Of a DNA stretch of 64,000 nt, positions 1 through 53,448 are shown in pieces. How positions within the stretch are numbered: position 1 is the first letter of the stretch; every line of letters begins with the position of its first letter. The position numbers and the translations under genes are program-made. The stretch comes from Candidatus Aminicenantes bacterium. Lineage in GTDB: Bacteria > Acidobacteriota > Aminicenantia > Aminicenantales > Aminicenantaceae. Under the pieces are notes generated by a model that was not told the origin of the DNA, searched no databases, and saw only the letters and a list, made by a program, of their open reading frames with translations. Where the stretch lies: the NCBI GenBank assembly GCA_021162615.1, contig JAGGYH010000080.1, positions 34,899-98,898 of the forward strand. The letters are read 5' to 3'.

Positions 1-29
1 AAAGAAAAAAATCATCAATACTTTCCCAA

Positions 30-995: not shown

Positions 996-1032
996 AGATG
1001 GTACAATCAGATAGCATCAAGGATGTGAGACC

Positions 1033-2175: not shown

Positions 2176-2182
2176 AACTCAA

Positions 2183-3319: not shown

Positions 3320-3399
3320 ACAGATTATGGTTATTGATCTGGATTAAGTATTTGCTAAATGACAAAGCTTTATCTATATTTAATGATGAGGAGGAAAAA

Positions 3400-3969: not shown

Positions 3970-4043
3970 AACAGAGAATTTAATCCATACGAAACTGATT
4001 TTTTTCAAAGAAACAAAAAAAATAAAATAATGGAAAACGAACC

Positions 4044-5369
4044 ATGAGTAATAAAAAAAAGAAAATCAGCAGAAGAAAGTTTTTAAAGAATGCATCACTG
4101 GCAGCGGCCGGCCTCGCTGCATCTCCCTACATCATACCCTCGTCTGTAATGGGGTTAAAGAAAAATACGCCTCCGAGCGATAAAATAGTCATGGCCGGAG
4201 TCGGCTTCGGAATGATGGGTATCCCAAATATGCAAAACTTTCTGAGTAAGGATGAAGTACAGTGGGTCGCTGTTTGCGATATAGACCAGAATCATCTCAT
4301 CCAAGCAAGAGATATTGTGAATGAGAAATACGGAAACAAAGACTGCGCCGCTTATCATAACTTCAGGGAACTTTGCACAAGAGAGGACATCGATGCTGTT
4401 TGTCTGGCTTTACCGGATCACTGGCATGCGATCGCTGCCATATACTGCGCCCGGGCTGGGTTTGACATATACGGAGAAAAGCCTTTCACCCATAGCCTTA
4501 GGGAAGGCCGCGCCGTATGCAATTCCATTAAACGATATAGCCGCATCTGGCAGACCGGAAGCTGGCAGAGATCTGTCGCCAATTTTCATAGAGCAGCCGA
4601 ACTTGTGCGCAATGGACGTATAGGGAAAGTGAAAAAAATCGAGGTCGGTCTTCCCCAGGGGCACCATGACTTTGCCGGAACAAAGGGCCAGGAAACAATG
4701 GGGCCTCCTCCAGCTTATCTGGACTATGACTTCTGGCTGGGCCCAGCTCCTTACGCTCCCTATTGTCCGGCACGGGTGCATAGAAACTGGAGATGGAACA
4801 TGGATTACGGTGGAGGCCAACTCATGGATTGGGTGGGCCACCATGTGGACATCGCTCACTGGGGGATGGGATATGATTCGACAGGACCTGTGGAAATCAA
4901 AGGAACCGCACAGTACGATCGCGCTGGAGTCTGGAACAGTCCGACTCGGTATTACATTGAACTCAAGTATGCGGACGGAACCCCCATGACCGTAGCCGGA
5001 GGTTATCCTGAAATCCGGAGCGGGACAAAATGGATCGGTGAACACGGGTGGGTATGGTGTGATAGGGGCGGTTTTGAAACCCATCCTGCATCACTGATCA
5101 AGGAATTTATTGGGCCGGATGAGACAAAACTATATCAAAGCAGTGACCATTATCAAAACTTTCTGGACTGCATAAAAACAAGAAAAACGACCATAACCCC
5201 TGCTGAAACAGCTCACAGATCTGCTAGTGTGGGTCACCTTGGAGTGATCGCTATTGAAACAGGACGCAAAATACACTTTGACCCGGAAACAGAGACCATA
5301 AAGAATGACCCAGAAGCTCAACGCCTTCTAAGCCGTTCCTTTCGTAAACCCTGGCAACTTCCAGAATGA
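4044..5369 (+). CDS. Gfo/Idh/MocA family oxidoreductase, Tat-exported (putative periplasmic glycoside/sugar dehydrogenase)
   Basis: Twin-arginine motif SRRKFLKNASLAAAGLAASP. Rossmann VMAGVGFGMMG, CDID, and the GEKP motif typical of this family. Confidence 0.8.
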   Translation: MSNKKKKISRRKFLKNASLAAAGLAASPYIIPSSVMGLKKNTPPSDKIVMAGVGFGMMGIPNMQNFLSKDEVQWVAVCDIDQNHLIQARDIVNEKYGNKDCAAYHNFRELCTREDIDAVCLALPDHWHAIAAIYCARAGFDIYGEKPFTHSLREGRAVCNSIKRYSRIWQTGSWQRSVANFHRAAELVRNGRIGKVKKIEVGLPQGHHDFAGTKGQETMGPPPAYLDYDFWLGPAPYAPYCPARVHRNWRWNMDYGGGQLMDWVGHHVDIAHWGMGYDSTGPVEIKGTAQYDRAGVWNSPTRYYIELKYADGTPMTVAGGYPEIRSGTKWIGEHGWVWCDRGGFETHPASLIKEFIGPDETKLYQSSDHYQNFLDCIKTRKTTITPAETAHRSASVGHLGVIAIETGRKIHFDPETETIKNDPEAQRLLSRSFRKPWQLPE

Positions 5370-5397
5370 ATGGAATCCCATATCAAAGAGGCGAAAC

Positions 5398-7377
5398 ATG
5401 AAAAGAAGAAAAAACAACATAACATATTTGATCCTAATCGGTATCCTGTTTTTTGGATTTTCAGGAGCCTTCCTTTGTTCAGCCCAGGGAAAAAAGCTCT
5501 TATCTCTTCTCAAACAGCTTGAAACATATGAAGAGGGTGAAAACGACAATCTTGTTCTTGAATTAAACGCCTATATCCGCTCTCACAGAGCCACAAAAGA
5601 ACAACGCCTGGAATGCGAACGCCAGCTCCTTTCTTTCCTCAAAACAAATGCCTCTGAAACCGCAAAAATGCTGGCCTGCCGTCACTTGAGGATCATCGGA
5701 ACTAAAGAATCAATCCCTGTACTTAAAGACATGCTTTTAAAAAAGGAAACCACGGATATGGCGAGATATGCTCTGGAAAAAATACCGGATAGGGCTTCTG
5801 ATAAGGCCCTGTTAAGTGCCCTACACAACAGCAGCGGCCTTATCAAAGCGGGGATCATTTCTTCTTTAGGGCACAGAAAAGTCTCCGAGGCGGTCCCCTC
5901 CCTTAAAGAAATCCTGAATGAAAACACCGGTTCATCCCTATCCCTTGCTGCTGCTGCAGCGTTGGGGCATATAGGAAATTCTGGAGCCGCAGATGCGCTT
6001 TCCCTTGCCCTTTCTCAGACTGAAGGAGAGCTTAAGGTTCAGGTTGCAGGGTCGCTTTTAAAATGCGCGGAGCAGTATCTTTCAGATGGAGATAATGAGC
6101 AAGCCGCGCATATCTATGACCGGATCCTTACCGCAGACCTTCCGTCATCCCTGCACAACAGTGCAGTCAGAGGGAAAATAAATGCAGCGGGTGAAGAGGG
6201 AACAAAGTACATTCTTGAAGCCCTTAAAAACAAAAAAAAAGAAATCAATCCTTCCTGTATTGAGATGATCCCGGAATGTTTTGATTCTTCAAATATCGCC
6301 AGTGTGTGCGCTCTGCTCCCTACACTGCCCCCCTCGGCAAAAGCCCAACTGATCTCAGTCCTTTCCCTGTACCCGGATAAGGGAGTGCGGCAAGCTGTCC
6401 TTGATTCAGCACAAAACAGTTCCCCAGCCGTAAGGATCGCTTCTCTGAAAACTTTAAAGCAAATAGGTGACTCATCTACGGTCGCTTTCCTCGCTCAATA
6501 TGCGGCCTCCTCCCAAGGAGAGGACCAGCAGCAGGCCCGAATAAGCCTTTTGGGGCTTAAAGGGGACGGCATTGACAGCACCATCATCTCAAACCTGAAC
6601 AGCGAAAAAACTCCTGAGATACAAATAGAATACCTCAAAGCCTTGGAACAAAGGCAGGTGTATTCAGGAAAGGATGTTGTTTTTGAAACATTAAGCTCTT
6701 CAATCCCGGAAGTACGGCTTCAGGCTATCAAATCCATAAAACAAATATCCTCTCCGGGGGACATCCCGAGGCTCCTTGAATTCCTCATAAAAACGGAAAA
6801 CGATACGGACAGGGAAGAAATGATAAACACCATTGTTTTCACAGCTTTAAAAATACAGGACCCCCTGCACAGAGGAGAGTCCGTCAAAACAGTCCTCCCT
6901 CAAGTCCAAGATCCCCGTGCCCGCTCATCCCTTTATCTTCTCCTCGGAAGGATAGGCGATGACAGCACTCTTCCCGTACTTCGGTCAGGATTGAGTGAAA
7001 AAAACGAGATGGTTCATGACTCAGTCACGAGAGCCTTTGCCAGCTGGCCCACTTCCACAGCCGCGGAAGACGTCCTCTATATTGCCGAAACATCCAATAA
7101 ACCGGAATACCGGATCCTCTGCCTCAGGGCCTATATAAGAATGGTTGAAATGGAGCCTTATCAAAGGCCTGAGGCTGCGGTCCGATCCTTAGAAAACGCC
7201 CTGAACCTCACTGAAAGGGTCCAGGAAAAGGTCTTGATTCTGGGAGCGCTTCAAAAATTCCCATGCGATCGCGCGGCAAACGTTACGGAGCGGCTCACGA
7301 AAGACGGCGATGTTGAACAGGAAGCCAAAAAAACACTTATTCTTATTAAAGATAAACTAAAGAAAGGGGGAGAATAA
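5398..7377 (+). CDS. Secreted HEAT-repeat (PBS-lyase-like) protein
   Basis: Signal peptide, then many about 30-aa repeats of the HEAT-like pattern A..ALG.IG...A...L. No CxxCH motif. AGAGG RBS before the ATG. Confidence 0.6.
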   Translation: MKRRKNNITYLILIGILFFGFSGAFLCSAQGKKLLSLLKQLETYEEGENDNLVLELNAYIRSHRATKEQRLECERQLLSFLKTNASETAKMLACRHLRIIGTKESIPVLKDMLLKKETTDMARYALEKIPDRASDKALLSALHNSSGLIKAGIISSLGHRKVSEAVPSLKEILNENTGSSLSLAAAAALGHIGNSGAADALSLALSQTEGELKVQVAGSLLKCAEQYLSDGDNEQAAHIYDRILTADLPSSLHNSAVRGKINAAGEEGTKYILEALKNKKKEINPSCIEMIPECFDSSNIASVCALLPTLPPSAKAQLISVLSLYPDKGVRQAVLDSAQNSSPAVRIASLKTLKQIGDSSTVAFLAQYAASSQGEDQQQARISLLGLKGDGIDSTIISNLNSEKTPEIQIEYLKALEQRQVYSGKDVVFETLSSSIPEVRLQAIKSIKQISSPGDIPRLLEFLIKTENDTDREEMINTIVFTALKIQDPLHRGESVKTVLPQVQDPRARSSLYLLLGRIGDDSTLPVLRSGLSEKNEMVHDSVTRAFASWPTSTAAEDVLYIAETSNKPEYRILCLRAYIRMVEMEPYQRPEAAVRSLENALNLTERVQEKVLILGALQKFPCDRAANVTERLTKDGDVEQEAKKTLILIKDKLKKGGE

Positions 7378-7468
7378 AACTTTAAAATTTTTGAAAAATT
7401 TAAGGACATGGATTAAACTATTATTCTCTCTGACAAGTTTTTTTATCCTATGAACAGGAGGTCAAATA

Positions 7469-8641
7469 ATGACCCAAATAAAAAAACAAAACAAGCATCC
7501 TAAAAAACTGACATACGGCATGGTCGGAGGAGGAGAGGGGGCTTTCATCGGAGATGTGCACCGGAAAGCCATCGCCATGGACGGAAAAGCAGAACTTGCT
7601 GCAGGGTGTTTCTCCAGGGATTTTGAGAACACCAAAAACACAGGCCAAAGGCTGGGACTGGACAGCAGCCGGTTATACCCCACATACAAAGACATGTTTG
7701 AAAAGGAGAGCCAAAGAGAGGACGGCATTGACTTTGTGGTCATTGTCACTCCTAATAACACCCACTTCTCCATTTCAAAAGCTTCCCTGGAGCACGGAAT
7801 CCATGTGGTGTGTGACAAGCCCCTCACCATATCCAGCCGGGAGTCTGAACAGCTGGCTGAGATATCAGACGAAAAAGACCTCTTATTCTGTGTGACATAC
7901 ACCTATACCGGTTACCCCATGGTCAAGCAGATGAAAGCAATGATAGCCAACGGAGAACTGGGAGAAATCCGCTTCATAAACGCAGAATACCCTCAGGAAT
8001 GGCTGGCGGCCTCTATAGAAAAAACGGGGCAGAAACAATCCGTTTGGAGAACAGATCCCTCCCAGTCCGGTGCCTCGAACTGCGTGGGAGATATAGGGAG
8101 CCATATCGAAAATATGGTCTCTTATCTAACGGGCTTAAAAATCACATCTCTTTGTGCCCGTCTGGATACCTTTGTGGAAGGCAGGATTCTTGACGACAAT
8201 GCATCCATACTGGTGGAATATGACCGCGGGGCTAAAGGCCTCTATTGGAGCAGCCAGGTCGCCATTGGACATGATAACGGACTGAAAGTCAGAATATACG
8301 GGAAAAAAGCTTCCATTGAATGGTTTCAAGAAAATCCCAACTCCTTCAGGATATCTTATCTTGATAAACCCACAGAGATCATATCGCGAGGAAGAGACAA
8401 GATGGCCCTCTCCGCAGAAAGAGTATCGCGTGTCCCAGCTGGCCACCCTGAAGGCTATTTCGAAGCCTTTGCCAATATATACAGCACATTCCTCACAGCA
8501 CTTGACAAAAAAATCAATAAAATACCTCTAAAGGAAGAGGACGCAGACTATCCGGGTATCAAAGAAGGATATCAAGGAGTGAGGTTTATAGAAAGATGCG
8601 TTGAAAGTTCCCAGAAAGGAACGGTATGGGTTGACTTTTAA
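7469..8641 (+). CDS. Gfo/Idh/MocA family oxidoreductase (cytoplasmic, no signal peptide)
   Basis: GMVGGGEGAFIG Rossmann motif and CDKPLT motif. AGGAGG RBS. Confidence 0.8.
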   Translation: MTQIKKQNKHPKKLTYGMVGGGEGAFIGDVHRKAIAMDGKAELAAGCFSRDFENTKNTGQRLGLDSSRLYPTYKDMFEKESQREDGIDFVVIVTPNNTHFSISKASLEHGIHVVCDKPLTISSRESEQLAEISDEKDLLFCVTYTYTGYPMVKQMKAMIANGELGEIRFINAEYPQEWLAASIEKTGQKQSVWRTDPSQSGASNCVGDIGSHIENMVSYLTGLKITSLCARLDTFVEGRILDDNASILVEYDRGAKGLYWSSQVAIGHDNGLKVRIYGKKASIEWFQENPNSFRISYLDKPTEIISRGRDKMALSAERVSRVPAGHPEGYFEAFANIYSTFLTALDKKINKIPLKEEDADYPGIKEGYQGVRFIERCVESSQKGTVWVDF

Positions 8642-8664
8642 TACGCACATAAAAGGAGGATAAA

Positions 8665-9660
8665 TTGGAAAGACCCGTCACATTATTTACCGGACAATGG
8701 GCAGATATGGCTTTTAAGGATATCTGCAAAAAAGCAAAAGAATGGGGTTATGACGGCCTTGAGATCGCTTGCTGGGGCGATCATATGGAAGTGAATAAAG
8801 CTGATAAAGATCCTGATTATATCAGCAGGAAAAAACAAATACTGGAAAAAAACGGGCTGAACTGCTGGGCTCTCGGAGCTCATCTGGCAGGCCAGTGTGT
8901 GGGCGACCTTTATGATGACCGCCTGGACGGATTCGTCCCGGATAAAGCAAAAGGAAATCCTGAAAAAATGAGAGCGTGGGCCATTGAGCAGATGAAAACA
9001 ACAGCCAAAGCCGCCAAAGATATGGGATGCTCGGTGGTCAACGGTTTTATGGGTTCCCCTATTTGGAAATTCTGGTATTCATTTCCCCAGACTACAGAAC
9101 AAATGATAGAAGCGGGTTTTAAAGAGATAAAAAAACTCTGGACGCCGATTTTAGATGAATTCGACCGCTACAAAGTCAAATTCGCTCTGGAGGTCCATCC
9201 CACTGAGATTGCATTTGATTTCTATACCACGCAAAAACTGTTCAATGTCTTTGAACACAGACCCACCCTCGGATTGAACTTTGACCCCAGTCATCTGGTC
9301 TGGCAGGGAATGGACCCAAAACTTTTCATACGCGAATTTTCCGATCGGATCTATCATGTCCATATGAAAGATGTGGCCGTGACCCTTGACGGAAAATCCG
9401 GCATACTGGGCTCTCACCTTCCGTTCGGCGACCTCAGAAGAGGATGGAACTTCAGGTCACTTGGCCACGGAGATGTTGACTTTGAAGAGATCATACGGGA
9501 ATTGAACGATGCCGGATACACAGGCCCTCTATCAGTGGAATGGGAAGATAACGGCATGGACCGGGAGTACGGAGCACAGGAATCTGTGGAATTTGTCAAA
9601 AGCATCAATTTTTCGCCATCAGAAGTCGCTTTTGATAAAGACATGAAAACTGAAAAATAA
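8665..9660 (+). CDS. Sugar phosphate isomerase/epimerase (xylose isomerase-like TIM barrel)
   Basis: TTG start 8 nt after AAAGGAGGA. TIM-barrel-like sequence (YDGLEIACWGDHMEV.., metal-ligand-like E/D/H pattern). Common partner of Gfo/Idh/MocA enzymes. Confidence 0.6.
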   Translation: MERPVTLFTGQWADMAFKDICKKAKEWGYDGLEIACWGDHMEVNKADKDPDYISRKKQILEKNGLNCWALGAHLAGQCVGDLYDDRLDGFVPDKAKGNPEKMRAWAIEQMKTTAKAAKDMGCSVVNGFMGSPIWKFWYSFPQTTEQMIEAGFKEIKKLWTPILDEFDRYKVKFALEVHPTEIAFDFYTTQKLFNVFEHRPTLGLNFDPSHLVWQGMDPKLFIREFSDRIYHVHMKDVAVTLDGKSGILGSHLPFGDLRRGWNFRSLGHGDVDFEEIIRELNDAGYTGPLSVEWEDNGMDREYGAQESVEFVKSINFSPSEVAFDKDMKTEK

Positions 9661-9710
9661 AGATTACCTTATTCAACGACCGGCCCGAAAAAGAGACAAG
9701 GAAAAGAAAG

Positions 9711-13417: not shown

Positions 13418-13423
13418 ATCCAC

Positions 13424-14062
13424 ATGTTCTCAATGATAAGTTTCGTTTCCTTTATATCAGTGGCCGCATTCCTTGTCACTTTCAGTTACACAAAACAGAA
13501 AAAAGCAAAAAAAGAAAGCCCGGACAAAAAGCAAGCCCAAAATTTTTCAGACTGGCTTGTCAGCGGACTTCGTTCTTTTTTTAAAACTTCTCTTAAGAAC
13601 CGGATAAAAAAAATCAACCGGAAGCATCTCATCTCAGAACTATCCATAACTGAAAAAATTATCTGGGGAGGCCTTGTGTTCAGTTTTCTTTATCTTTTCC
13701 TGAGCGGATTCTTCTTCTCTCTCTTCAGTCTGCGCCAAATGTTTGGGGTTCCTCTTCTATTCCATATCGTCCTTGGCGGTCTTTTTGCAGTGTTTCTTTG
13801 TGTTTGTTTGTTTCTCTCTGCCGAAAAATTCAGTCTTTCCTTATCATTCAGCTTCAAAAATATCCTCTTCTGGATTTTCATGTTATCAGGCCTTTTTCTT
13901 GCCGGCACTTCTTTATGCATGATGGTCCCCCTCTTTACGTACCGAACACAGCTGTTCCTCTTCGAACTTCACAGATACAGTGCGCTCACAGCAACTCTTG
14001 CTGCTGTCCTTTTCCTGTATACGGTATTCTCAAACAATGAAAAAAGAAAAAATCGGGGATAA
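13424..14062 (+). CDS. Small polytopic membrane protein (possible b-type cytochrome or quinone-side partner of the multiheme cytochrome; function unknown)
   Basis: Five or six predicted hydrophobic helices with conserved-position His residues (FHIVLGG, ELHRYS). GGAG RBS. Confidence 0.45.
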   Translation: MFSMISFVSFISVAAFLVTFSYTKQKKAKKESPDKKQAQNFSDWLVSGLRSFFKTSLKNRIKKINRKHLISELSITEKIIWGGLVFSFLYLFLSGFFFSLFSLRQMFGVPLLFHIVLGGLFAVFLCVCLFLSAEKFSLSLSFSFKNILFWIFMLSGLFLAGTSLCMMVPLFTYRTQLFLFELHRYSALTATLAAVLFLYTVFSNNEKRKNRG

Positions 14063-14933
14063 ATCTGTTCTCCGTTTTTCCCACGAGGCCATGGGGACCT
14101 TCTTTGAAATCCTTCTCACTGATATAGACCAGGGTTACGCCCGGCAGGTCTCACAGGCAGTTTTTAATGAAATAGATAGATTAGAAAAAGAACTCTCCCG
14201 GTTCAATCCGAGCAGCGATATAGGTCAGATAAACAATCTAAAACCAGGACAGTCCTGCGCTGTTCAGGTGGACGTGTTTGAGTGCCTTCAAAAAGCATGC
14301 CGTATCCAGCATGAGACCGGCGAAGCCTTTGCCATAAATTATGCTTCCTCTCTGCGTTATTTTAAGAAGCAAAAAACAGCCGGCCTTCCGATAAAAATGT
14401 CCCGTTCCTCGGGGAGATTTAACATAACCTTTGAAAAAAGGGAGGTATTCGCAGGAACAGAAAGCCTCATGATTGACCTGGGAGGCATTGGCAAAGGTTT
14501 TGCCCTGGACAAAGCCGCAGACCTTTTGCTGGACTGGGATGTCTCCAAAGCCCTGCTCCACAGCGGCACCAGCACAGCTCTGGCTGTAGGAGCCCCCAAC
14601 GGTAAGGAAGGGTGGGCCATAGGCGTCATAGGAAATGGAGACAGTCCTTTTGTTCCCGGAAGAATCATGGTCAAAAACCGCGCTGTCAGCGGTTCGGGAA
14701 AGCAGGTAAAAGGGGAGCACATCATAGACCCCAGAACAGGAGCCCCTGCCTCAGGTCATGAGGCCGCATGGGTGTCTCATCCCTCCGCAGCCGCAGCCGA
14801 TGCCCTTTCCACTGCTTTTGTGGTGATGAAGACCCCGGAAGTGGAGACATTCTGCCTTGAAAACAAGCATCTCTGGGCTGCAGTGTTAACAAATGGAGGG
14901 CATCATAAAATTTTTAACCAAAATAGTATATAA
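14037..14933 (+). CDS. apbE: FAD:protein FMN transferase (ApbE family)
   Basis: DLGGIGKGFALDKAADLL and C-terminal ADALSTAFVV signature blocks of ApbE. Start placed at the internal ATG (MKKEKIG) rather than ORF-track 13980 to limit overlap with the upstream gene. Confidence 0.75.
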   Translation: MKKEKIGDKSVLRFSHEAMGTFFEILLTDIDQGYARQVSQAVFNEIDRLEKELSRFNPSSDIGQINNLKPGQSCAVQVDVFECLQKACRIQHETGEAFAINYASSLRYFKKQKTAGLPIKMSRSSGRFNITFEKREVFAGTESLMIDLGGIGKGFALDKAADLLLDWDVSKALLHSGTSTALAVGAPNGKEGWAIGVIGNGDSPFVPGRIMVKNRAVSGSGKQVKGEHIIDPRTGAPASGHEAAWVSHPSAAAADALSTAFVVMKTPEVETFCLENKHLWAAVLTNGGHHKIFNQNSI

Positions 14934-14953
14934 TGCCTTTAAAGGAGTGTGTC

Positions 14954-15652
14954 ATGATAAGAAAAGTTTGTATATCCCTATTCATATTGATCATCTCTCT
15001 GTCCTTTTCCGGAGCCGCATGTTTATTCGGTCAGGAAAAACAGGATAAACAGGATAAAAAAGAAGTCCTGCAACTGGAGCTTCCCAAACCCATGTTCGTG
15101 GGAACACCCACCAATATCCGCACGCCTAACCTTGAGAAAATAACAGGAAAAAGGAGGGGGCCGTTTTATGTTCCCAAAGGAACCAAGCTCCTTTCTCTCG
15201 ATAAATCCGTGACTTCCAGCGATATGATGCCCATCATAGGAGAGATCGAATACGTGACAGACGGAGAAAAATCAGGAGAAGCCGGTTATTATGTGGAACT
15301 CGGTCCCGGCTCCCAGTACGTTCAGATAGACCTCGGCGCTTCTTATGCCATCCATGCCATACTTGTGTGGCATTTCCACAGCCAGGCCCGGGTTTACAGA
15401 GATGTGGTGGTGCATGTAAGTGATGACCCTGATTTTATATCTGAAGTCAAAACCGTATTCAACAACGACCACGACAACTCCTCCGGACTGGGGATAGGAA
15501 GAGACAAGGAATATATCGAGACCAATGAAGGCAGGCTGATCGATACAAGAGGGATCAGCGGGCGCTATGTGCGCCTTTACAGCAGCGGCAACACATCCAA
15601 TGATATGAACCATTATGTTGAAGTGGAGGTCTACGGCACTGAGGTGAAATGA
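14954..15652 (+). CDS. Secreted discoidin (F5/8 type C)-like domain protein
   Basis: ATG at 14954 preceded by AAAGGAG (ORF-track start 14933 is less likely). Signal peptide, then a beta-sandwich-like region ending RYVRLYSSGNTSNDMNHYVEVEVYG. Confidence 0.5.
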   Translation: MIRKVCISLFILIISLSFSGAACLFGQEKQDKQDKKEVLQLELPKPMFVGTPTNIRTPNLEKITGKRRGPFYVPKGTKLLSLDKSVTSSDMMPIIGEIEYVTDGEKSGEAGYYVELGPGSQYVQIDLGASYAIHAILVWHFHSQARVYRDVVVHVSDDPDFISEVKTVFNNDHDNSSGLGIGRDKEYIETNEGRLIDTRGISGRYVRLYSSGNTSNDMNHYVEVEVYGTEVK

Positions 15653-17202
15653 GCAGAAAAGTCTTCGCCGGCCTGTTTGCCCTCATAGTGCTGCTGGGGC
15701 TGTTCTTTCGCTTCTTTAACCTTGATCTGCGGCCAGTGCATCATGATGAGGCGAATCAGGCTGTCAAATTCGGAGTTCTTCTGGAAAAAGGAGAATACAC
15801 ATACGATTATTTTGACCACCACGGGCCTTCTCTCTACTATATGACACTCCCTTTGGCTCTGGCCTTCACAGGAAAAGACTTTGCTGCGCTCAACGAAAGC
15901 ACCCTCCGTTTTCTTCCCGCCCTCTTCGGATCAGGACTCCTTCTTCTCCTCCTCCTCCTTAAGGGCCGATTGGGATTAAAAGCGGTTCTGTTTTCAGCTC
16001 TCTTTATAAGCCTCTCTCCCCTAATGGTCTTTTTCAGCCGCTTTTACATTCAGGAAATGCTTCTCGCCTTTTTTACCCTTGGATTTATCATATCACTCTG
16101 GCTGAGTCTGGATACAAAAAAAATTCACTGGTATATAACAGCCGGATTAATGGCTGGCTTTATGTTCGCCACAAAGGAGACCTCCCTTATCCTCTTCGGT
16201 TCCCTGCTCGGCTCATTTATTCTCTTAAAGATCTCCCATGCTTCCGGATCAAAGAGCAAACACATCTCCCATTCCCTCCTTTCCCTTAATACCTTTTTCT
16301 TTCTCGGGGCGGCCTTTGTCGTATGGCTGCTCTTTTATTCCTCCTTTTTCCATAATATGAACGGACTCTGGGACTCCATCCGTTCTTTAGGAGTCTATTT
16401 CAAGCGCGCCGGTGAGGCAGGAGCTCACGCTCATCCCTGGTATTACTATCTCAAAATGCTGGCCTTTTCCCGATACGGCAACGGACCTTTATGGAGCGAG
16501 GCTTTGATCCTGGTTTCTGCTCTTATAGGAAGTATCTCCGCATTCACTAAAAAGGAAAAGGCACGCCATGATACCTCTTTTATCCGCTTTGTCTTTTTCT
16601 ATACCCTCATTTGCACTCTTGTTTTTTCTCTTGTATCCTATAAAACTCCCTGGAACATCGTCCCTTTTTATCTGGGGATGCTGGTGCTAGCCGGGTGCGG
16701 GATTTCCTTTCTCATTGACTTGTGCCAAAAAATCTGGCTTAAGTCAGCGGCCTTATCCCTGATTTTCATCGGCATCTTTCATCTGGGCTGGCAGAGCTGG
16801 AGAGCCAATTTTGTCTTTTACGCAGACGTCCGGAATCCCTATGTCTATGCGCAAACCAGTACGGACTTTCTTAACCTGATCCGCAGAATAAACCATATCT
16901 CCAAAGTCCATCCGGAACACAAGAATATGCTGATCAAAGTGATCGCTGATCCTCATATGATATGGCCTCTACCCTGGTATCTCCGGGAATTCAAACGGGT
17001 TGGTTACTGGACAGAGGCCGAAGAGGCGGGTCCCATAGAGGGAACACCCGTTTTAATCAGCTCCATGGAACAAGCCAAACGCATCGGGCCTCTGGTCGGG
17101 GACCGGTATGTATCCGAATTTTACGGACTTAGAAATGAAGTCCTTCTATCCGTGTATATAAGACTTGATCTGTGGAACCGGTTTTTAGAAAATAGGCGCT
17201 GA
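15649..17202 (+). CDS. GT-C fold membrane glycosyltransferase (PMT/ArnT-like; polyprenol-phosphate-sugar dependent)
   Basis: Polytopic. First periplasmic-loop HHDE motif right after TM1 (FRFFNLDLRPVHHDEANQ), as in PMT/ArnT/TIGR03663-type GT-C enzymes. Start overlaps the previous stop. Confidence 0.6.
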   Translation: MSRKVFAGLFALIVLLGLFFRFFNLDLRPVHHDEANQAVKFGVLLEKGEYTYDYFDHHGPSLYYMTLPLALAFTGKDFAALNESTLRFLPALFGSGLLLLLLLLKGRLGLKAVLFSALFISLSPLMVFFSRFYIQEMLLAFFTLGFIISLWLSLDTKKIHWYITAGLMAGFMFATKETSLILFGSLLGSFILLKISHASGSKSKHISHSLLSLNTFFFLGAAFVVWLLFYSSFFHNMNGLWDSIRSLGVYFKRAGEAGAHAHPWYYYLKMLAFSRYGNGPLWSEALILVSALIGSISAFTKKEKARHDTSFIRFVFFYTLICTLVFSLVSYKTPWNIVPFYLGMLVLAGCGISFLIDLCQKIWLKSAALSLIFIGIFHLGWQSWRANFVFYADVRNPYVYAQTSTDFLNLIRRINHISKVHPEHKNMLIKVIADPHMIWPLPWYLREFKRVGYWTEAEEAGPIEGTPVLISSMEQAKRIGPLVGDRYVSEFYGLRNEVLLSVYIRLDLWNRFLENRR

Positions 17203-17203
17203 A

Positions 17204-17932
17204 ATGATTGACCTTTCACTTGTGATTCCTGCCTATAACGAAGAAAACAAAATAAAAAAAGACATAGAGAGGGCTGCGTTTTTCTTAGAGGAAAACCACA
17301 TGGTGGGAGAAATCATTGTCGTGGATGACGGAAGCCGTGACAACACCTCTGCCGCTGCTTCCAAAGCTTGCACAAATCCCTCGGTTGAATTGAAAATCAT
17401 CCGGCTTGAGAAAAACAAAGGCAAAGGATTTGCGGTTAAAACAGGAATACTGGCATCCAAAGGTGAGGTCGTGCTTTTCGCGGACAGCGGGACCTGCATC
17501 CCCTATGAAAACGCCCTTCCCTTTATCAAGAAAATCAGGGCCGGGGAAGTGGCTATCGCCCTGGCTTCTCGATATGCCAAAGGCACGGTCATCCGCAGAA
17601 ACCGTCCTCTTTCAAGGCGCATCCTTTCCAGACTCTTTCACTGGGCTGCGGTTTTTATAGCCGGCCTTCCAAGAAAAATCACAGACTCTCAATGCGGATT
17701 TAAAATCTATAACGGAGACGCTGCCAGGAAGCTCTACAGTCAGTGCGGGCTCCATGGTTTTCTTTTTGACCTGGAGATATTGATTCGGGCCCTCAGAGAA
17801 GGACACAGTATCACTGAATTTCCTGTTGAATGGACCTGCGACCTGGACTCTCGCCTGCGCCCAGCCTCTGAAGCCGGAGATATACTCAGAGACCTCTTTG
17901 AGGTAAGAAAGATAGCCAAAAAAAAGTTATGA
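17204..17932 (+). CDS. GT2 polyprenol-phosphate glycosyltransferase (Dpm1/GtrB-like)
   Basis: LSLVIPAYNEE..IIVVDDGSRDNT..EKNKGKGFAVKTG motifs of dolichol-P-mannose-synthase-like GT2 enzymes. Soluble form (no C-terminal TM). Confidence 0.75.
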   Translation: MIDLSLVIPAYNEENKIKKDIERAAFFLEENHMVGEIIVVDDGSRDNTSAAASKACTNPSVELKIIRLEKNKGKGFAVKTGILASKGEVVLFADSGTCIPYENALPFIKKIRAGEVAIALASRYAKGTVIRRNRPLSRRILSRLFHWAAVFIAGLPRKITDSQCGFKIYNGDAARKLYSQCGLHGFLFDLEILIRALREGHSITEFPVEWTCDLDSRLRPASEAGDILRDLFEVRKIAKKKL

Positions 17933-18712
17933 GATTTCGCGTATCCAGATATTTCTGTAACGAACCGGGTTTCCGTGGTCCTGCAGGGAAAGAGGAAGTT
18001 TCTCCGGATGAGCTTTGTAGGAAGGCCTTTTTTTCCACGCTGTAGGGCCCGTCAGCACCACATCATTATGGATGAGAACATGGTTGTGAAACACGGTCAT
18101 GCGGGCCGGCTCTTTTAATTGTCCGTTCTCATTAAAAAAGGGAGCCGTAAAGATAATATCAAAACACTGCCATTCACCCGGAGGACGGCACACATTGACC
18201 AAAGGAGGATACTGCCCGTACACAGCTCCGGCCATGCCGTCTGCATATGTCCTGTTCTCAAAGTTATCCAGCACCTGTACTTCATAGAGCCCCATTAAAA
18301 ACACACCGCTGTTTCCACGGCCCTGTCCTTCTCCGGATACTTCCGCAGGGGATGCCCACTCGATATGGAGCTGGCAGCTTCCAAACTCTTTTTTTGTCTG
18401 GATGGAGCCTGTTTTTTTCACGACTTCCAAATATCCGTTTTCCACCTTCCATTGAGCCTCGTTTCCTTTGCTGTCTTCCCATTGGGAAAGGTCTTCCCCG
18501 TCAAAAAGAACTTCCGCATCTGAAGGCGCAGGAACAGGAAGCATTGAAGGGCCCGGATCCACAACAGGGGGCAAGGGCCTGTCTTTGTCGTGTATTTTCC
18601 ACTTCTTTACAGAAGCCATTTCCGAATTCACTTCTTCATTCTCCTGACAGTTAATGACACCAAAGAGAAAAAAAACAAAAACCAGCAAGACAAAACCCAC
18701 TGCTTTTTTCAT
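17927..18712 (-). CDS. DUF1080 family protein (3-keto-disaccharide hydrolase-like), secreted
   Basis: Signal peptide plus concanavalin-like DUF1080 region (GNSGVFLMGLYEVQVLDNF..HNHVLIHN..HGNPVRYRNIWIREI). AAAGGAG RBS. Confidence 0.7.
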   Translation of the reverse strand: MKKAVGFVLLVFVFFLFGVINCQENEEVNSEMASVKKWKIHDKDRPLPPVVDPGPSMLPVPAPSDAEVLFDGEDLSQWEDSKGNEAQWKVENGYLEVVKKTGSIQTKKEFGSCQLHIEWASPAEVSGEGQGRGNSGVFLMGLYEVQVLDNFENRTYADGMAGAVYGQYPPLVNVCRPPGEWQCFDIIFTAPFFNENGQLKEPARMTVFHNHVLIHNDVVLTGPTAWKKRPSYKAHPEKLPLSLQDHGNPVRYRNIWIREIS

Positions 18713-18729
18713 GACCAGCTCCTTTTAAC

Positions 18730-20118
18730 TTAAAGAGACCAACCTTTTCGGTATTCAGTATGAAGAAAATTGTTGGCTTCCGGAAGGTTTTTGAATTCCA
18801 TTTTCTTCCCGTCCCATTCCAGCTTGGTGTTTTTTGCCTTTGTGGCTACGGCTACATTTCCCAAAAGCATGACTTCAGTCAAAGTCCCGGAGTATGAAAA
18901 ATCCGTAGTGGATTTTTCGCCTTTTTTAATGGCTTCCACCCATTCCTCGTGGATGCCTGGAGAGCGCGGAATTGTTTTTTCCGGTCTTTTGTATTCCTGC
19001 ATCTTTGATTCCGGAATAATACGCGGATTGTTTCCATAAGTGCTATACATTAACATCCCTTTATCACCCACAAACAATCCTCCTCCTCCGGAGTCGCCCA
19101 TCATGCGGCCATCTTCCAGTTCAGCCGGCCTGGGAGGCATGATCCCTCCGTCATACCATTTGAGGGTTACAGGCGGCATTTTCCCCCTGGCCGGGAATTC
19201 ATAAGTCACCACCTCAGCAACAGGATAAGAGTCCTTGGTGAATTTGGTGGAACTGGCCTGAACAGATGTGGGATGTCCCAGCTTTAGGGCCCAAAAGGGG
19301 TGGTCCAGTATGTGAGCTCCCATATCTCCCAGAGCTCCTGTTCCAAAATCCCACCAGCCTCTCCAGCTAAAGGGATGATAAGCCGGATGATAGGGCCTGT
19401 ATGGAGCCGGTCCAAGCCAAATATCCCATGCCAATTCATCAGGCACAGGAGGCGTATCTTTGGGAGCCTCAATGCCCTGGGGCCATATGGGCCGGTTTGT
19501 CCAGCAGTGGACTTCCCTTACATCGCCTATGGCTCCGTCCCAGATCCATTCATTGATCAGACGGCCACCTTCTCCGGCATGACCCTGGTTGCCCATCTGG
19601 CTGACGATCCCTGCTTTTTTCGCAGCCTGAGCCAGCAGCCTCGCCTCTTTTACAGTGTGGGTCAAAGGCTTTTGAACAAAGACATGCTTGCCTCTTTTTA
19701 TGGCATTCATGGCGATCACAGCATGGTTGTGATCCGGGGTCGTAACCGTGACTGCATCTATGTTTTTCTCTTTATCCAGAAGCACCCGAAAATCTTGATA
19801 CTTATTCGCTTTCTCATACATAGCCTTCTGTTCGGGAGTGTTATGTTCCGAACCCAGGAATTTGGCCATTTCCCTGTCATCCACATCACACAACGCCACA
19901 ATATTTTCTGAACTCACGCTGCGGATATCAGAAGAGCCTTTTCCTCCGACCCCGATGCTTCCTATATTTAAGGTGTCACTGGGTGCTTTATACCCGGCTC
20001 CTCCCAGGACGTGACGGGGAATAATCATAAATCCAGCGGCAGTAGCCGCGCTTCGTCCTATAAATTCTCTTCTGGTTAAGGTTTTTTTTGATTCGCCTTT
20101 TTCTTTCTTGTTTTTCAT
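18730..20118 (-). CDS. Gfo/Idh/MocA family oxidoreductase, Tat-exported
   Basis: TRREFIGRSAATAAGFMIIP Tat motif, GSIGVGGKGSSD Rossmann motif, VQKPLT motif. Start trimmed to MKNKKEK (ATG at 20118, RBS AGAAGGGTG) from ORF-track 20154. Confidence 0.8.
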   Translation of the reverse strand: MKNKKEKGESKKTLTRREFIGRSAATAAGFMIIPRHVLGGAGYKAPSDTLNIGSIGVGGKGSSDIRSVSSENIVALCDVDDREMAKFLGSEHNTPEQKAMYEKANKYQDFRVLLDKEKNIDAVTVTTPDHNHAVIAMNAIKRGKHVFVQKPLTHTVKEARLLAQAAKKAGIVSQMGNQGHAGEGGRLINEWIWDGAIGDVREVHCWTNRPIWPQGIEAPKDTPPVPDELAWDIWLGPAPYRPYHPAYHPFSWRGWWDFGTGALGDMGAHILDHPFWALKLGHPTSVQASSTKFTKDSYPVAEVVTYEFPARGKMPPVTLKWYDGGIMPPRPAELEDGRMMGDSGGGGLFVGDKGMLMYSTYGNNPRIIPESKMQEYKRPEKTIPRSPGIHEEWVEAIKKGEKSTTDFSYSGTLTEVMLLGNVAVATKAKNTKLEWDGKKMEFKNLPEANNFLHTEYRKGWSL

Positions 20119-20171
20119 AATCACCCTTCTTTCATCTAAAGTTTGAAAAATCAAGTCTAATGATAACTATA

Positions 20172-33713: not shown

Positions 33714-33715
33714 AA

Positions 33716-53335: not shown

Positions 53336-53448
53336 TAGCCGTTCTGACGGGATTGGGATAATGCCAGAAACAATTATATTCCTGGATTTATTATCAGGAA
53401 AATTGATTGCTTTTCCGAATTCAGCTAGAATTCAATCGTGATGCTGCC

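Follow-up and report, generated by a model that had tools for sequence, protein, structure and literature searches.

What do five dehydrogenases of the Gfo/Idh/MocA (GFO) family do side by side in one bacterium, and where do the electrons taken up by the exported ones go? These questions are raised by a locus from an uncultured sediment bacterium of the Aminicenantes lineage, of which a stretch of 64,000 nucleotides (the window) was analysed. The original prediction was an island at 4044-20118 with GFO genes in two-gene modules, each with a different partner, for the degradation of glycosides by the 3-keto route. The genes of the cluster are as follows:

GFO1, 4044-5369, plus strand: 441 aa, Tat-exported Gfo/Idh/MocA protein of the PF19051 subtype
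HEAT1, 5398-7377, plus strand: 659 aa, secreted HEAT-repeat partner of GFO1
GFO2, 7469-8641, plus strand: 390 aa, cytoplasmic Gfo/Idh/MocA protein, candidate 3-keto-sugar reductase
TIM, 8665-9660, plus strand: cytoplasmic xylose-isomerase-like TIM barrel, candidate 2-hydroxy-3-keto-glucal hydratase or lyase
GFO3, 9711-11084, plus strand: 457 aa, Tat-exported Gfo/Idh/MocA protein of its own subfamily
CYT, 11081-13417, plus strand: 778 aa, heptaheme c-type cytochrome
MEM, 13424-14062, plus strand: five-helix membrane protein, divergent cytochrome b561/FdnI type (PF01292)
ApbE, 14037-14933, plus strand: 298 aa, FAD:protein FMN transferase family
F58C, 14933-15652, plus strand: 239 aa, membrane-anchored discoidin/CBM32-like carbohydrate-binding protein
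PMT2, 15649-17202, plus strand: 517 aa, GT-C membrane glycosyltransferase/flippase-associated, Agl23-like
GT2, 17204-17932, plus strand: 242 aa, small family-2 glycosyltransferase
DUF1080 protein, 17927-18712, minus strand: 261 aa, secreted, PF06439
GFO4, 18730-20118, minus strand: 462 aa, Tat-exported AL3/BT2158-like homologue
HEAT2, 23970-26162, minus strand: 730 aa, second secreted HEAT-repeat partner, downstream of GFO5
GFO5, 26192-27466, minus strand: 424 aa, Tat-exported core member of the PF19051 subtype
ThuA, 27641-28387, plus strand: 248 aa, Sec signal, divergent from GFO5

The predicted genes were all found. Each of the five GFO proteins matches Pfam PF01408 and a GFO C-terminal domain, and the four expected RR-Tat signals are there as an S/T-R-R-x-F-[LI] motif in GFO1, GFO3, GFO4, and GFO5; GFO2 has no export signal. 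Domain matches also agree with the predicted partners (two HEAT proteins, a TIM barrel, the heptaheme cytochrome, and a DUF1080 protein) and with a ThuA gene nearby. The predicted span was too short, leaving GFO5, HEAT2, and ThuA outside. GFO4 and the HEAT2/GFO5 part are separated by a patatin-like lipase and an M3 peptidase, which seem unrelated. Five further genes had been omitted, namely those for the cytochrome b-like protein, ApbE, the CBM32-like protein, GT-C, and GT2, which are densely packed in the same direction as the cytochrome gene. The cytochrome does not form a simple two-gene module with GFO3, as had been proposed, but sits in a conserved seven-gene unit (GFO3, heptaheme cytochrome, cytochrome b, ApbE, CBM32-like lectin, GT-C, and GT2). 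For GFO4, the open reading frame extends to a TTG at 20154; the ATG at 20118 was chosen, which agrees with the 462-aa gene call. Gene callers place the start of TIM at about 8707 (317 aa).

The arrangement was compared with 80 mapped loci from different species. The modules recur in these loci and the arrangement exceeds chance. The cluster is not mobile, as the word island implied, but a chromosomal cluster conserved vertically. The description "massively paralogised" is also misleading, since the five GFOs share just 22-33% pairwise identity, in a gene order kept across about 80 Aminicenantes species. On these identities they are old, separate subfamilies and no recent paralogues: five ancient and distinct Gfo/Idh/MocA subfamilies, each tied to its own partner. 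The partners are co-conserved across the loci, and on this point the original reading was not refuted.

The GFO4-DUF1080 module is the closest to characterised enzymes. GFO4 matches NF058561 (BT_2158_fam) over its full length with 550 bits, below the 750-bit equivalog cut-off, and the structure of AL3 (8tdf) with 389 bits and 45% identity over 424 columns; the sugar-site motifs of AL3 (MGNQG, RPIWPQG, and GDMxxH) are kept. The DUF1080 protein matches PF06439 (142.6 bits) and PDB 4qhz (230 bits), and its E-x-Q (YEVQV) and Q-x-H (LQDHG) motifs resemble the reported channel residues of BT2, a likeness of motifs rather than a residue-by-residue alignment. In the PDB search, the solved AL/BT lyases gave no match to the DUF1080 or TIM protein at E<=0.001. 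The DUF1080 gene comes after GFO4 in 16 of 18 related loci. By homology and synteny, the pair corresponds to the glycoside 3-dehydrogenase and 3-keto-glycoside lyase/hydratase of Bacteroides/Alistipes, and the DUF1080 protein is a candidate 3-keto-glycoside 1,2-lyase or 2-hydroxy-3-keto-glucal hydratase. It had been called a 3-keto-disaccharide hydrolase; DUF1080 enzymes are now termed 3-keto-glycoside lyases/hydratases.

GFO2 contains PF01408, PF02894, and PF22725, and its best solved relatives (3v5n with 392 bits, 7d5m, and 3dty) are all uncharacterised oxidoreductases. Its partner TIM matches PF01261 (148 bits); the closest structure is 2zds (375 bits, uncharacterised), and a match to 8ro4, annotated as 2-hydroxy-3-keto-glucal hydratase, was also found (167 bits, E 4e-48). 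GFO2 is followed by TIM in 46 of 46 related loci. In Agrobacterium, the hydratase AtHYD and the oxidoreductase "Gfo Oxo" were cloned together, and their accession numbers are two apart (PMC10628242). Homology and synteny thus make the cytoplasmic GFO2-TIM pair the counterpart of the Agrobacterium Gfo reductase and 2-hydroxy-3-keto-glucal hydratase.

GFO1 and GFO5 both match PF19051 (118.6 and 453 bits) besides PF01408. GFO1 carries the motif RRKFL and matches TIGR01409 above its cut-off, while GFO5 carries RRIFI. Against AL3 (8tdf), GFO1 scores 89 bits over the N-terminal ~235 residues only and GFO5 99 bits over the N-terminal ~230. A HEAT gene is the next after GFO1 in 24 of 25 related loci. 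HEAT1 and HEAT2 (127 and 94.5 bits to HEAT_2) belong to the same family, with 21% identity over 574 residues (E 2e-19), and both have an N-terminal signal. Neither contains CxxCH, and the HEAT partner family has no conserved Cys or His. Relatives elsewhere are fused to ThuA, DUF1080, or TIM domains; in sister lineages the partner of GFO1 is a ThuA-HEAT fusion. A PF19051-type GFO gene lies directly upstream of a HEAT gene in two Planctomycetes contigs and in one metagenomic contig of unassigned origin. Judged by homology and synteny, the pairing of a PF19051-type GFO with a HEAT protein is a widespread module, represented here by GFO1-HEAT1 and GFO5-HEAT2(-ThuA). HEAT1 is probably a scaffold or adaptor; such a protein, lacking a cofactor of its own, might dock the dehydrogenase to 3-keto-sugar enzymes. 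ThuA matches PF06283 (177.5 bits), and its orthologue in relatives (69-77% identical) adjoins DUF1080-GFO4.

In the central unit, GFO3 lies directly upstream of CYT in all 68 loci with room for both. The stop codon of GFO3 overlaps the start codon of CYT (ATGA) in the window and in at least 42 of 72 loci, and the two genes are still linked in L072, L077, and L084, which are distant and rearranged. GFO3 has PF01408 and an RRDFL motif, with a Pfam TAT_signal match below threshold (20.0 bits, cut-off 22.7); its orthologues are 59-92% identical, and its best solved match is DgpA (64 bits, Rossmann part only). CYT carries a Sec signal and is anchored in the membrane at its C-terminus; 270 of its residues form a domain without heme. 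In 52 relatives, all seven CxxCH motifs are invariant, as are eight other histidines, which would be enough for bis-His ligation of all seven hemes. The AlphaFold model is mostly confident at residues ~400-670 (means of 10-residue blocks 70-96) and ends with a long helix at 728-771. No fold match was found in the PDB at E<=0.001. There are more than 1400 relatives, and every one with a named source is labelled Aminicenantes or Acidobacteriota. L089 has a further multiheme cytochrome near the cluster.

PF01292 is matched by 28 of 32 MEM orthologues (best E 3.5e-8). Two histidines only, H114 and H183, are invariant. In the distant loci L072, L077, and L079, the gene at this position encodes a protein that clearly matches PF01292 (50-69 bits, cut-off 30), and MEM is likely to be a quinone-facing anchor subunit. 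ApbE matches PF02424 (141 bits), and 57 of 61 loci encode it after the cytochrome; none of 40 orthologues has a signal peptide. No protein of the cluster, in the window or the 80 loci, has a conserved [S/T]GA[S/T] flavin attachment motif. F58C matches PF22633 (29.5 bits, cut-off 27.8), and PF00754 below threshold. Its AlphaFold model (pLDDT 79) consists of an N-terminal helix and a beta sandwich, with CBM32 modules as the top Foldseek matches (E 5e-9). It has at least 7999 relatives, and identity is ~70% among the 120 listed.

The conservation of a seven-gene unit including cytochrome b, ApbE, a lectin, and two glycosyltransferases suggests a connection to the quinone pool. We propose, with a probability of roughly 55%, that Aminicenantes have conserved this cluster vertically for the oxidative (3-keto type) processing of sugars or glycosides in the periplasm, and that it includes a GFO3-cytochrome sugar:quinone oxidoreductase. 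The central unit would be a membrane-bound respiratory complex. GFO3 would be exported folded with NAD(P) bound and would oxidise a sugar held by the CBM32-like subunit. Electrons would then pass from GFO3 through the seven bis-His hemes of the anchored CYT to cytochrome b and menaquinone, and the nicotinamide cofactor, which cannot exchange, would be re-oxidised by this chain. ApbE (flavin attachment) and GT2/GT-C (lipid-linked sugar transfer) might be maturation factors of the complex, and a covalent flavin might serve as the two-electron/one-electron converter between NAD(P)H and heme. We know of no case in which enzyme-bound NAD(P)H passes electrons directly to heme, which counts against the proposal, as do the missing flavin attachment motif, the lack of an export signal in ApbE, and the mere two histidines kept by the cytochrome b of the window. 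How the tightly bound cofactor is re-oxidised was stated to be unresolved in the Bacteroides/Alistipes work (Liu 2021, PMC8121099; Nasseri 2024, bioRxiv 10.1101/2024.03.25.586180), and cytochromes were named as a possible route (Nasseri 2024, bioRxiv 10.1101/2024.03.25.586180). If true, our proposal would be a candidate answer to how periplasmic GFO enzymes dispose of electrons, a point left open in the literature.

The sequence does not fix the direction of electron flow. In a reductive or redox-balancing role, electrons would pass from menaquinol through cytochrome b and CYT to GFO3, which would reduce periplasmic keto-sugars (e.g., 3-keto-glucose to glucose) as an electron sink or finishing reductase. 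PF01292 cytochromes b occur in quinone-reducing and quinol-oxidising complexes alike, and Aminicenantes MAGs come mostly from anoxic sediments, where electron sinks are valuable. The pathway as published has no net redox change, and in its last step 3-keto-glucose is reduced by that same bound cofactor. However, menaquinol is a weak donor for the formation of NAD(P)H, and periplasmic dehydrogenases that deliver electrons to quinone typically combine a Tat-exported catalytic subunit with a cytochrome b and an electron-transfer subunit. The reductive direction is thus unlikely.

The glycosyltransferases suggest that the unit from GFO3 to GT2 might instead build or remodel a cell-envelope glycan or glycoprotein. 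GT2 would load polyprenyl phosphate, GT-C would transfer the sugar outside, and the CBM32 protein would bind it, while GFO3 would oxidise the sugar towards a keto or amino sugar and the cytochromes would just remove electrons. GT2 matches PF00535 (85 bits) and resembles polyprenyl-phosphate hexose synthases, with sub-threshold NCBIfam similarity to PpgS, AglJ, ArnC, and dolichyl-phosphate hexose transferase. PMT2 matches TIGR03663 (203 bits, cut-off 126) and PF13231. Both are conserved in the unit (GT-C in 43 of 53 loci). The closest cluster representatives of ApbE include GT-C-ApbE fusions, whose N-terminal part is 32-40% identical to PMT2, and GFO3 has sub-threshold similarity to the NCBIfam model of UDP-GlcNAc 3-dehydrogenase (83 bits). 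No sugar transporter, regulator, or glycoside hydrolase that would back a catabolic role is encoded in the 64-kb window, and the lack of catabolic transporters also fits glycan building. On the other hand, both flanks are modules homologous to catabolic 3-keto enzymes, the linkage to GFO-HEAT modules is kept after rearrangement, and an aminotransferase or other sugar-modifying enzyme is absent. The Alistipes catabolic fosmid has GT2 and GT39 beside the AL genes, and thus such neighbours are compatible with catabolism. Envelope glycan synthesis is therefore improbable as the role of the unit.

Most of the GFOs might also be inositol, aldose, or other polyol dehydrogenases, and the cluster a set of independent periplasmic oxidoreductases without glycoside cleavage. 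None of the five reaches an NCBIfam equivalog cut-off, and GFO1, GFO2, GFO3, and GFO5 have sub-threshold matches to models of inositol 2-dehydrogenase, xylose dehydrogenase, and levoglucosan dehydrogenase. Only 130-260 N-terminal residues of GFO1, GFO3, and GFO5 match AL3 (in GFO3 these cover the Rossmann domain, in GFO1 and GFO5 also the start of the C-terminal domain), so their substrates cannot be assigned from it; similarity in the Rossmann domain does not reveal the substrate. Yet the best NCBIfam match of four of the five is the glycoside 3-dehydrogenase family, no inositol catabolic genes are present, and the strictly co-conserved partners are DUF1080, an AtHYD-like TIM protein, ThuA, and HEAT proteins fused elsewhere to these domains. 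Such a set of independent dehydrogenases is very unlikely. The predicted 3-keto-glycoside route thus holds in part: it is supported by GFO4-DUF1080, GFO2-TIM, and the fusions and neighbours of the HEAT proteins, but among the GFOs a close relation to a characterised glycoside 3-dehydrogenase is seen in GFO4 alone. That CYT works mainly in a conduit for metal or humic-substance reduction, with GFO3 as one of several donors or an accessory, is hardly credible: its weak Pfam similarity to cytochrome c7/c3 and MtrC/MtrF domains and the second multiheme cytochrome of L089 would fit, but the modelled C-terminal helix anchors CYT in the inner membrane, the conserved unit lacks an outer-membrane porin and further cytochromes, and CYT never occurs without GFO3 in 68 loci.

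The sugar:quinone oxidoreductase proposed here can be compared with several known systems. Zymomonas glucose-fructose oxidoreductase (GFOR), a GFO enzyme that is likewise exported by Tat, does not release its NADP. Its similarity to GFO2 and GFO3 extends over the Rossmann domain, that to GFO4 and GFO5 is weaker, and GFO1 gave no match. It differs from the proposed complex in that no redox partner protein takes part and a second sugar substrate regenerates the cofactor. The [NiFe] hydrogenase HyaABC and formate dehydrogenase FdnGHI share a Tat-exported catalytic subunit, a C-terminally anchored electron-transfer subunit, and a PF01292 cytochrome b. In the window, however, the electron-transfer subunit has c-hemes instead of iron-sulfur clusters, the catalytic cofactor would be NAD(P), and the cytochrome b keeps two of the usual four heme-ligand histidines. 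In outline, the path from a periplasmic sugar 3-dehydrogenase through c-type heme to the respiratory chain is that of the lactose 3-dehydrogenase LacABC and the FAD glucoside 3-dehydrogenase, and flavoprotein-cytochrome c sugar dehydrogenases are often encoded near DUF1080 (PMC9007349). Their catalytic subunit is an FAD-dependent GMC oxidoreductase, whereas that of the window is a nicotinamide-dependent GFO, and the 778-aa heptaheme protein is unrelated to their cytochrome and comes with a separate cytochrome b.

The GFO2-TIM pair resembles the Agrobacterium tumefaciens set of AtOGE, AtHYD (8ro4), and "Gfo Oxo" (PMC10628242), where a TIM-barrel hydratase homologue is beside a cytoplasmic GFO; the identity of TIM to AtHYD is moderate, and in A. 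tumefaciens the first oxidation is by an FAD enzyme and not a GFO. In its gene neighbourhood, GFO5-ThuA is like the ThuAB trehalose/disaccharide 3-dehydrogenase of rhizobia and Agrobacterium as outlined in PMC8121099, where a ThuA-family gene is beside a GFO gene. Compared with that outline, GFO5 and ThuA of the window both have export signals, with a large HEAT-repeat protein as their integral third partner.

The cluster is also like Bacteroides thetaiotaomicron BT2156-BT2160 and Alistipes AL1-AL5 (PMC8121099; bioRxiv 10.1101/2024.03.25.586180), in which a Tat-exported GFO dehydrogenase with tightly bound NAD adjoins a secreted DUF1080 protein, and the set further includes a cytosolic GFO and a TIM-barrel enzyme. 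The TIM protein of the window is cytoplasmic and of the AtHYD type, while the BT1/AL1 type is secreted, and the window is without a SusR-like regulator. It adds three GFO subfamilies with HEAT or cytochrome partners and has a dedicated heme chain, while cofactor recycling in Bacteroides is believed to proceed through the reduction of 3-keto-glucose.

Gene content agreed with the original prediction. ORF listing together with Pfam and NCBIfam scans bore out the five Gfo/Idh/MocA oxidoreductase genes (GFO1 to GFO5), their named partners and the ThuA gene nearby. Tat signals had been predicted on four of the five, and GFO1, GFO3, GFO4 and GFO5 indeed start with the motif S/T-R-R-x-F-[LI], while GFO2 is without any signal. 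The genes of the region are as follows.

Genes of the region, with their coordinates in the window
4044-5369, plus strand, GFO1, with Tat motif, followed by HEAT1
5398-7377, HEAT1, HEAT-repeat partner of GFO1
7469-8641, plus strand, GFO2, followed by TIM
8665-9660, TIM, xylose-isomerase-like TIM barrel, partner of GFO2
9711-11084, plus strand, GFO3, with Tat motif, followed by CYT
11081-13417, CYT, heptaheme cytochrome of 778 aa with seven CxxCH motifs, partner of GFO3
13424-14062, same direction as CYT, MEM, small membrane protein and cytochrome b candidate
14037-14933, same direction as CYT, ApbE (PF02424)
14933-15652, same direction as CYT, F58C, discoidin-domain protein
15649-17202, same direction as CYT, PMT2, GT-C family protein (TIGR03663 at 203 bits)
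17204-17932, same direction as CYT, GT2, family-2 glycosyltransferase
17927-18712, DUF1080 protein (PF06439), partner of GFO4
18730-20118, minus strand, GFO4, with Tat motif, followed by the DUF1080 gene
23970-26162, HEAT2, HEAT-repeat partner of GFO5
26192-27466, minus strand, GFO5, with Tat motif, followed by HEAT2
27641-28387, divergent from GFO5, ThuA (PF06283 at 177.5 bits)

The genes for MEM, ApbE, F58C, the GT-C protein and GT2 were absent from the original prediction. They are tightly packed: neighbours overlap or are separated by no more than 6 bp. A single co-directional array spans 4044-17932, and GFO4-DUF1080, on the opposite strand, converges with it at its end. Patatin and M3 peptidase genes stand between this main block and HEAT2-GFO5-ThuA. 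Directly after ThuA there are two tandem SurA-like PPIase chaperone genes (28368-30357, minus strand), followed by Mfd (30384-33791). The remainder of the window is housekeeping, and no sugar transporter, regulator or glycoside hydrolase was found in the 64 kb. Further along, a radical-SAM/SPASM protein (52316-53335) precedes a sulfatase (53407-55413) and looks like its anaerobic maturase. A second PMT_2-type GT-C (55420-57054) follows the sulfatase, and a 795-aa ORF at 57060-59447 (minus strand) had no Pfam match at E ≤ 1e-4. Promoter and terminator counts in the window were near the shuffled expectation, and at that level plausible promoters lie upstream of 4044 and of 20118.

The exact CYT sequence was found on metagenomic contigs. 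CYT has more than 1400 relatives, and every one with a source name is labelled Candidatus Aminicenantes or Acidobacteriota. A scan for the CYT family with one genome per species gave 314 relatives, and the best 80 of these 314 loci were mapped by tblastn with all window proteins as queries. In the 80 mapped loci the usual order is GFO1, (ThuA-)HEAT, GFO2, TIM, GFO3, CYT, MEM and ApbE, followed by the discoidin protein, GT-C, GT2, (ThuA), DUF1080 and GFO4. The arrangements below were counted only in loci with enough flanking sequence.

Conserved arrangements among the mapped loci
GFO3 directly upstream of CYT, 68/68 loci
MEM directly after CYT, 61/68 loci
ApbE downstream of CYT, 57/61 loci
Discoidin protein downstream of CYT, 50/58 loci
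GT-C downstream of CYT, 43/53 loci
GFO2 then TIM, 46/46 loci
GFO1 then HEAT, 24/25 loci
GFO4 then DUF1080, 16/18 loci

Thus, the GFO genes and their partners are co-conserved in related genomes. In the window, the stop codon of GFO3 overlaps the ATG of CYT (ATGA), and at least 42 of 72 loci share this overlap. The most distant loci are L072, L077 (labelled Nitrospirales) and L084 (labelled Verrucomicrobia); in these the gene order is shuffled, GFO3-CYT is unbroken and GFO-HEAT modules are still near. Since the GFO3-CYT linkage outlasts rearrangement, it argues for function and not for frozen synteny. A long ORF in one locus (L066) was considered as a GFO3-CYT fusion and rejected, because the genes lie in separate reading frames and a GC-rich frame had produced the long ORF as an artefact.

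The region had been described as an island. Gene order across the loci shows it to be a conserved chromosomal cluster and not a mobile island. GC content rises at the left edge of the cluster from 0.38-0.40 (window 1-4000) to 0.46-0.49 (4000-20000), which hinted at horizontal transfer. This explanation was rejected because the gene order is conserved across the class, and the step is probably a compositional effect rather than a sign of recent transfer.

The description "massively paralogised" overstates recent duplication, since pairwise identity among the five GFO proteins is 22-33% and they match separate subfamilies. Judged by their sequences, they are old, distinct subfamilies, five lineages in one place. 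NF058561 (BT_2158_fam, glycoside 3-dehydrogenase), which has an equivalog cut-off of 750 bits, matched GFO4 over its full length at 550 bits, under that cut-off. It scored 161 bits on GFO5, 153 on GFO1 and 95 on GFO3, all N-terminal only, and 47 on GFO2. GFO4 is 45% identical to the Alistipes glycoside 3-dehydrogenase AL3 (structures 8tdf, 389 bits, and 8tdh, 379 bits). Its MGNQG, NRPIWPQG and GDMGAH align with the AL3 motifs that hold the sugar-site Gln, Arg...Trp and Asp...His, and its Tat signal is RREFI. Of these sugar-site residues, only the Asp...His pair, which is common to the whole family, is retained in GFO1, GFO3 and GFO5. GFO1 and GFO5 are both of the PF19051 type (GFO5 at 453 bits) and resemble AL3 only over the N-terminal 230-260 residues, a stretch that covers the Rossmann domain and the beginning of the C-terminal domain. 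For GFO3 there is no close relative of solved structure; its top match, DgpA (64 bits), is confined to the Rossmann domain. GFO3 is more conserved among orthologues (59-92% identity) than CYT (42-88%). GFO2 falls in a cytoplasmic group whose representatives are uncharacterised structures such as 3v5n (392 bits).

The DUF1080 protein matched PF06439 at 142.6 bits (cut-off 26.8) and has an N-terminal signal. It adjoins the Tat-type GFO4 in the window, as it does in 16 of 18 loci. Its YEVQV and LQDHG, compared by eye and not by residue-by-residue alignment, resemble the Glu-x-Gln and Gln-x-His of the BT2 channel, and the sole solved relative found for it was 4qhz. In the BT2156-2160 and AL1-5 systems, a Tat-exported GFO oxidises the 3-OH with a tightly bound NAD, and the DUF1080 protein (BT2157/AL2) is a 3-keto-alpha-glucoside lyase and 2-hydroxy-3-keto-glucal hydratase (PMC8121099; bioRxiv 10.1101/2024.03.25.586180). 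GFO4 and the DUF1080 protein reproduce this core arrangement. On the Alistipes fosmid that was the source of the cloned AL enzymes, GT2 and GT39 genes stand beside the AL genes, which parallels the GT2 and PMT_2-type GT-C genes beside DUF1080-GFO4.

TIM matched PDB 8ro4 at 167 bits (E 4e-48) over residues 20-326, and the deposition names that structure a 2-hydroxy-3-keto-glucal hydratase. The putative Agrobacterium hydratase AtHYD was cloned along with a "Gfo Oxo" oxidoreductase, and their accession numbers are two apart (PMC10628242). This match and this pairing make it plausible that the cytoplasmic GFO2 and TIM are a finishing pair, which would carry out hydration and then keto-sugar reduction. 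A literature search by PDB code found no functional data for the solved relatives of GFO2, TIM and the DUF1080 protein. The region can also be compared with ThuAB: a ThuA protein with a GFO neighbour is present, and ThuA-HEAT fusions adjoin GFO1 orthologues. A ThuA orthologue (69-77% identical) adjoins DUF1080-GFO4 in six loci (L022, L041, L050, L051, L053 and L064), and the window ThuA adjoins GFO5 instead. HEAT1 of the window has no fused ThuA domain, unlike its counterpart in sister lineages. The original prediction had assigned the whole set to the periplasmic 3-keto route. This is supported for GFO4, DUF1080 and TIM, which are homologous to characterised enzymes, but GFO1, GFO3 and GFO5 match the AL3 type N-terminally only. 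Overall, the region is quite probably a general 3-keto toolkit.

The HEAT partners have 77 relatives, among which there are three kinds of fusion. ThuA-HEAT fusions are many and about 940 aa long, and in sister Aminicenantes they accompany GFO1 as its partner. HEAT-DUF1080 fusions are 836 aa long, and one of them is labelled Phycisphaerae by NCBI. There is one HEAT-TIM fusion, of 957 aa. Outside the Aminicenantes set, a PF19051-type GFO lies directly upstream of a HEAT gene in three contigs, two from NCBI Planctomycetes/Phycisphaerae assemblies and one from a JGI metagenome. A cofactor-binding role for the HEAT family was rejected because 14 diverse members share no conserved Cys or His. We infer that the HEAT proteins may be cofactor-free scaffolds or adaptors that join a dehydrogenase to 3-keto-sugar enzymes. 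A JGI metagenome contig (L086, 803-7874) has three tandem PF19051 GFO genes followed by a HEAT-TIM fusion. A Planctomycetes assembly (L087, 1-11632) encodes a DUF6807-DUF1080 fusion, three PF19051 GFOs, and a ThuA-HEAT fusion with a further, separate HEAT protein after it.

CYT contains seven CxxCH motifs and eight further His, all invariant in 52 relatives. These are enough to bis-His-ligate every heme, and the predicted ligation pattern fits electron transfer rather than catalysis. In CYT, a Sec signal precedes six hemes within the first 370 residues, and a non-heme domain, the seventh heme and a long C-terminal membrane helix follow. The non-heme domain is a beta-rich stretch of 270 residues between hemes 6 and 7 (about residues 400-670, window 12280-13100). 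It was modelled mostly with confidence (pLDDT means of 70-96 for 10-residue blocks), and the heme-rich N-terminal half (about residues 18-400) mostly at low confidence. A Foldseek search of the non-heme domain against the PDB gave no relative at E ≤ 0.001; the best E was 0.095, sliding-clamp noise. MEM has two invariant His, H114 and H183, which by reading of the sequence would be at periplasmic helix ends. The window MEM scored 15.4 bits on PF01292 against a gathering threshold of 30.1 and has two invariant His against the four heme-ligand His of that family. PF01292 matched 28 of 32 MEM orthologues (best E 3.5e-8), and in the distant L072, L077 and L079 an unambiguous PF01292 cytochrome b (50-69 bits) is encoded at the MEM position. 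MEM is therefore a predicted cytochrome b, assigned by family and by position. With GFO3 as the Tat-exported catalytic subunit, CYT as the electron-transfer subunit anchored in the membrane and MEM as the cytochrome b, the layout has three parts, like that of periplasmic respiratory dehydrogenases such as HyaABC and FdnGHI.

ApbE scored 141 bits on PF02424, and the DLGGIGKG, IIDPRTG and DALSTAF motifs are conserved. No signal peptide was found on the window protein or on 40 orthologues, and ApbE appears to be cytoplasmic, as is known in Klebsiella. A flavin step would then fit only a Tat substrate modified before export. A regex search for conserved [S/T]G[AGSNC][S/T] over orthologue alignments of 14 cluster proteins and a six-frame scan of the window and 80 loci for the canonical [S/T]GA[S/T] gave only chance or out-of-frame matches, and none of the cluster proteins has a conserved [S/T]GA[S/T]. 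Among the closest ApbE cluster representatives there are six GT-C-ApbE fusions (P0357, P0360, P0363, P0400, P0401 and P0422). They join an N-terminal TIGR03663-type GT-C, with 32-40% identity to the window GT-C, to a C-terminal ApbE. The match to the window GT-C is nearly full length in four of the six. These fusions tie ApbE functionally to the GT-C protein. F58C was modelled as an N-terminal helix and a beta sandwich, and its top structural matches are CBM32 modules (E 5e-9). The family has at least 7999 relatives of about 229 aa, and the 120 matches listed are about 70% identical, an unusual conservation. In a locus labelled Planctomycetota (L088, 2-4388), a longer F58C relative precedes a 990-aa HEAT protein and ECF sigma factors.

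From these features we propose that GFO3 is a periplasmic dehydrogenase acting on a sugar or glycoside, possibly one presented by the CBM32 subunit. Electrons would pass from GFO3 through the seven hemes and cytochrome b to menaquinone, so that the heme chain and cytochrome b would be the outlet for a non-exchangeable nicotinamide cofactor. A covalent flavin installed by ApbE would be a natural two-electron/one-electron converter between NAD(P)H and heme, and the GT2/GT-C pair might glycosylate or otherwise mature a subunit. We give the combined reading, a 3-keto toolkit with respiratory coupling, a probability of roughly 0.55. Respiratory coupling taken separately is possible, at somewhat below even odds. 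A heme chain running in the reductive direction, from quinol through GFO3 to a keto-sugar, fits the data less well. So does a central unit (GFO3 to GT2) that builds an envelope glycan, an idea prompted by the presence of GT2, GT-C and CBM32 genes and the lack of transporters. Like these two, the view of the GFO proteins as generic inositol or aldose dehydrogenases accounts less well for the 3-keto modules on either side, for the anchoring in the inner membrane or for the strict pairing with GFO3. On the same grounds, an extracellular electron-transfer conduit is a poorer fit for CYT. If the respiratory coupling is true, periplasmic sugar oxidation could feed anaerobic respiration directly in Aminicenantes, a widespread sediment lineage, and two uncharacterised accessory families, the HEAT scaffold and the CBM32-like protein, gain clear partners. 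A further proposal is doubtful: that GFO3, CYT and cytochrome b form a new respiratory complex with an ApbE flavin, GT-C glycosylation and a CBM32 lectin, in which hemes carry electrons from the exported nicotinamide-cofactor dehydrogenase to the quinone pool, and that the HEAT proteins are a second, cofactor-free docking system. If it is true, such a complex would give the periplasmic 3-keto-glycoside pathway the electron outlet it is missing, and it would be the first known case of c-type cytochromes serving an enzyme with bound NAD(P)H. Should the inference be wrong, the region would remain a well-defined set of new members of a known pathway.

Recent work has established oxidative (3-keto) glycoside cleavage as a broad alternative to the classical glycosidases (PMC8121099; bioRxiv 10.1101/2024.03.25.586180). 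The pathway is already known, and GFO4-DUF1080 and GFO2-TIM are new representatives of known types. In the incomplete literature searched, there was no earlier description of the PF19051-GFO and HEAT module, of the unit formed by GFO3, heptaheme cytochrome, cytochrome b, ApbE, CBM32, GT-C and GT2, or of GT-C-ApbE fusions, and nothing relevant on GFO with multiheme cytochrome, ThuA with HEAT and DUF1080, or Aminicenantes with GFO. LacABC and other FAD-type glucoside 3-dehydrogenase-cytochrome c enzymes may work in a similar way, but their FAD GMC subunit is missing here, and no GMC or FAD domain was found in any gene between 4 and 28 kb. HyaABC and FdnGHI are alike in layout, but their iron-sulfur subunit is missing. 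For the BT2156-2160 and AL1-5 systems, it was left open how the non-exchangeable NAD of the exported dehydrogenase is re-oxidised in vivo (PMC8121099; bioRxiv 10.1101/2024.03.25.586180), and Nasseri et al. named cytochromes as possible re-oxidants (bioRxiv 10.1101/2024.03.25.586180). The cluster offers a concrete and very strongly co-conserved candidate for this outlet, a GFO translationally coupled to a heptaheme cytochrome and accompanied by a cytochrome b. The gene catalogue would not surprise a specialist, but the pairing with CYT makes the question left open in those systems directly testable.
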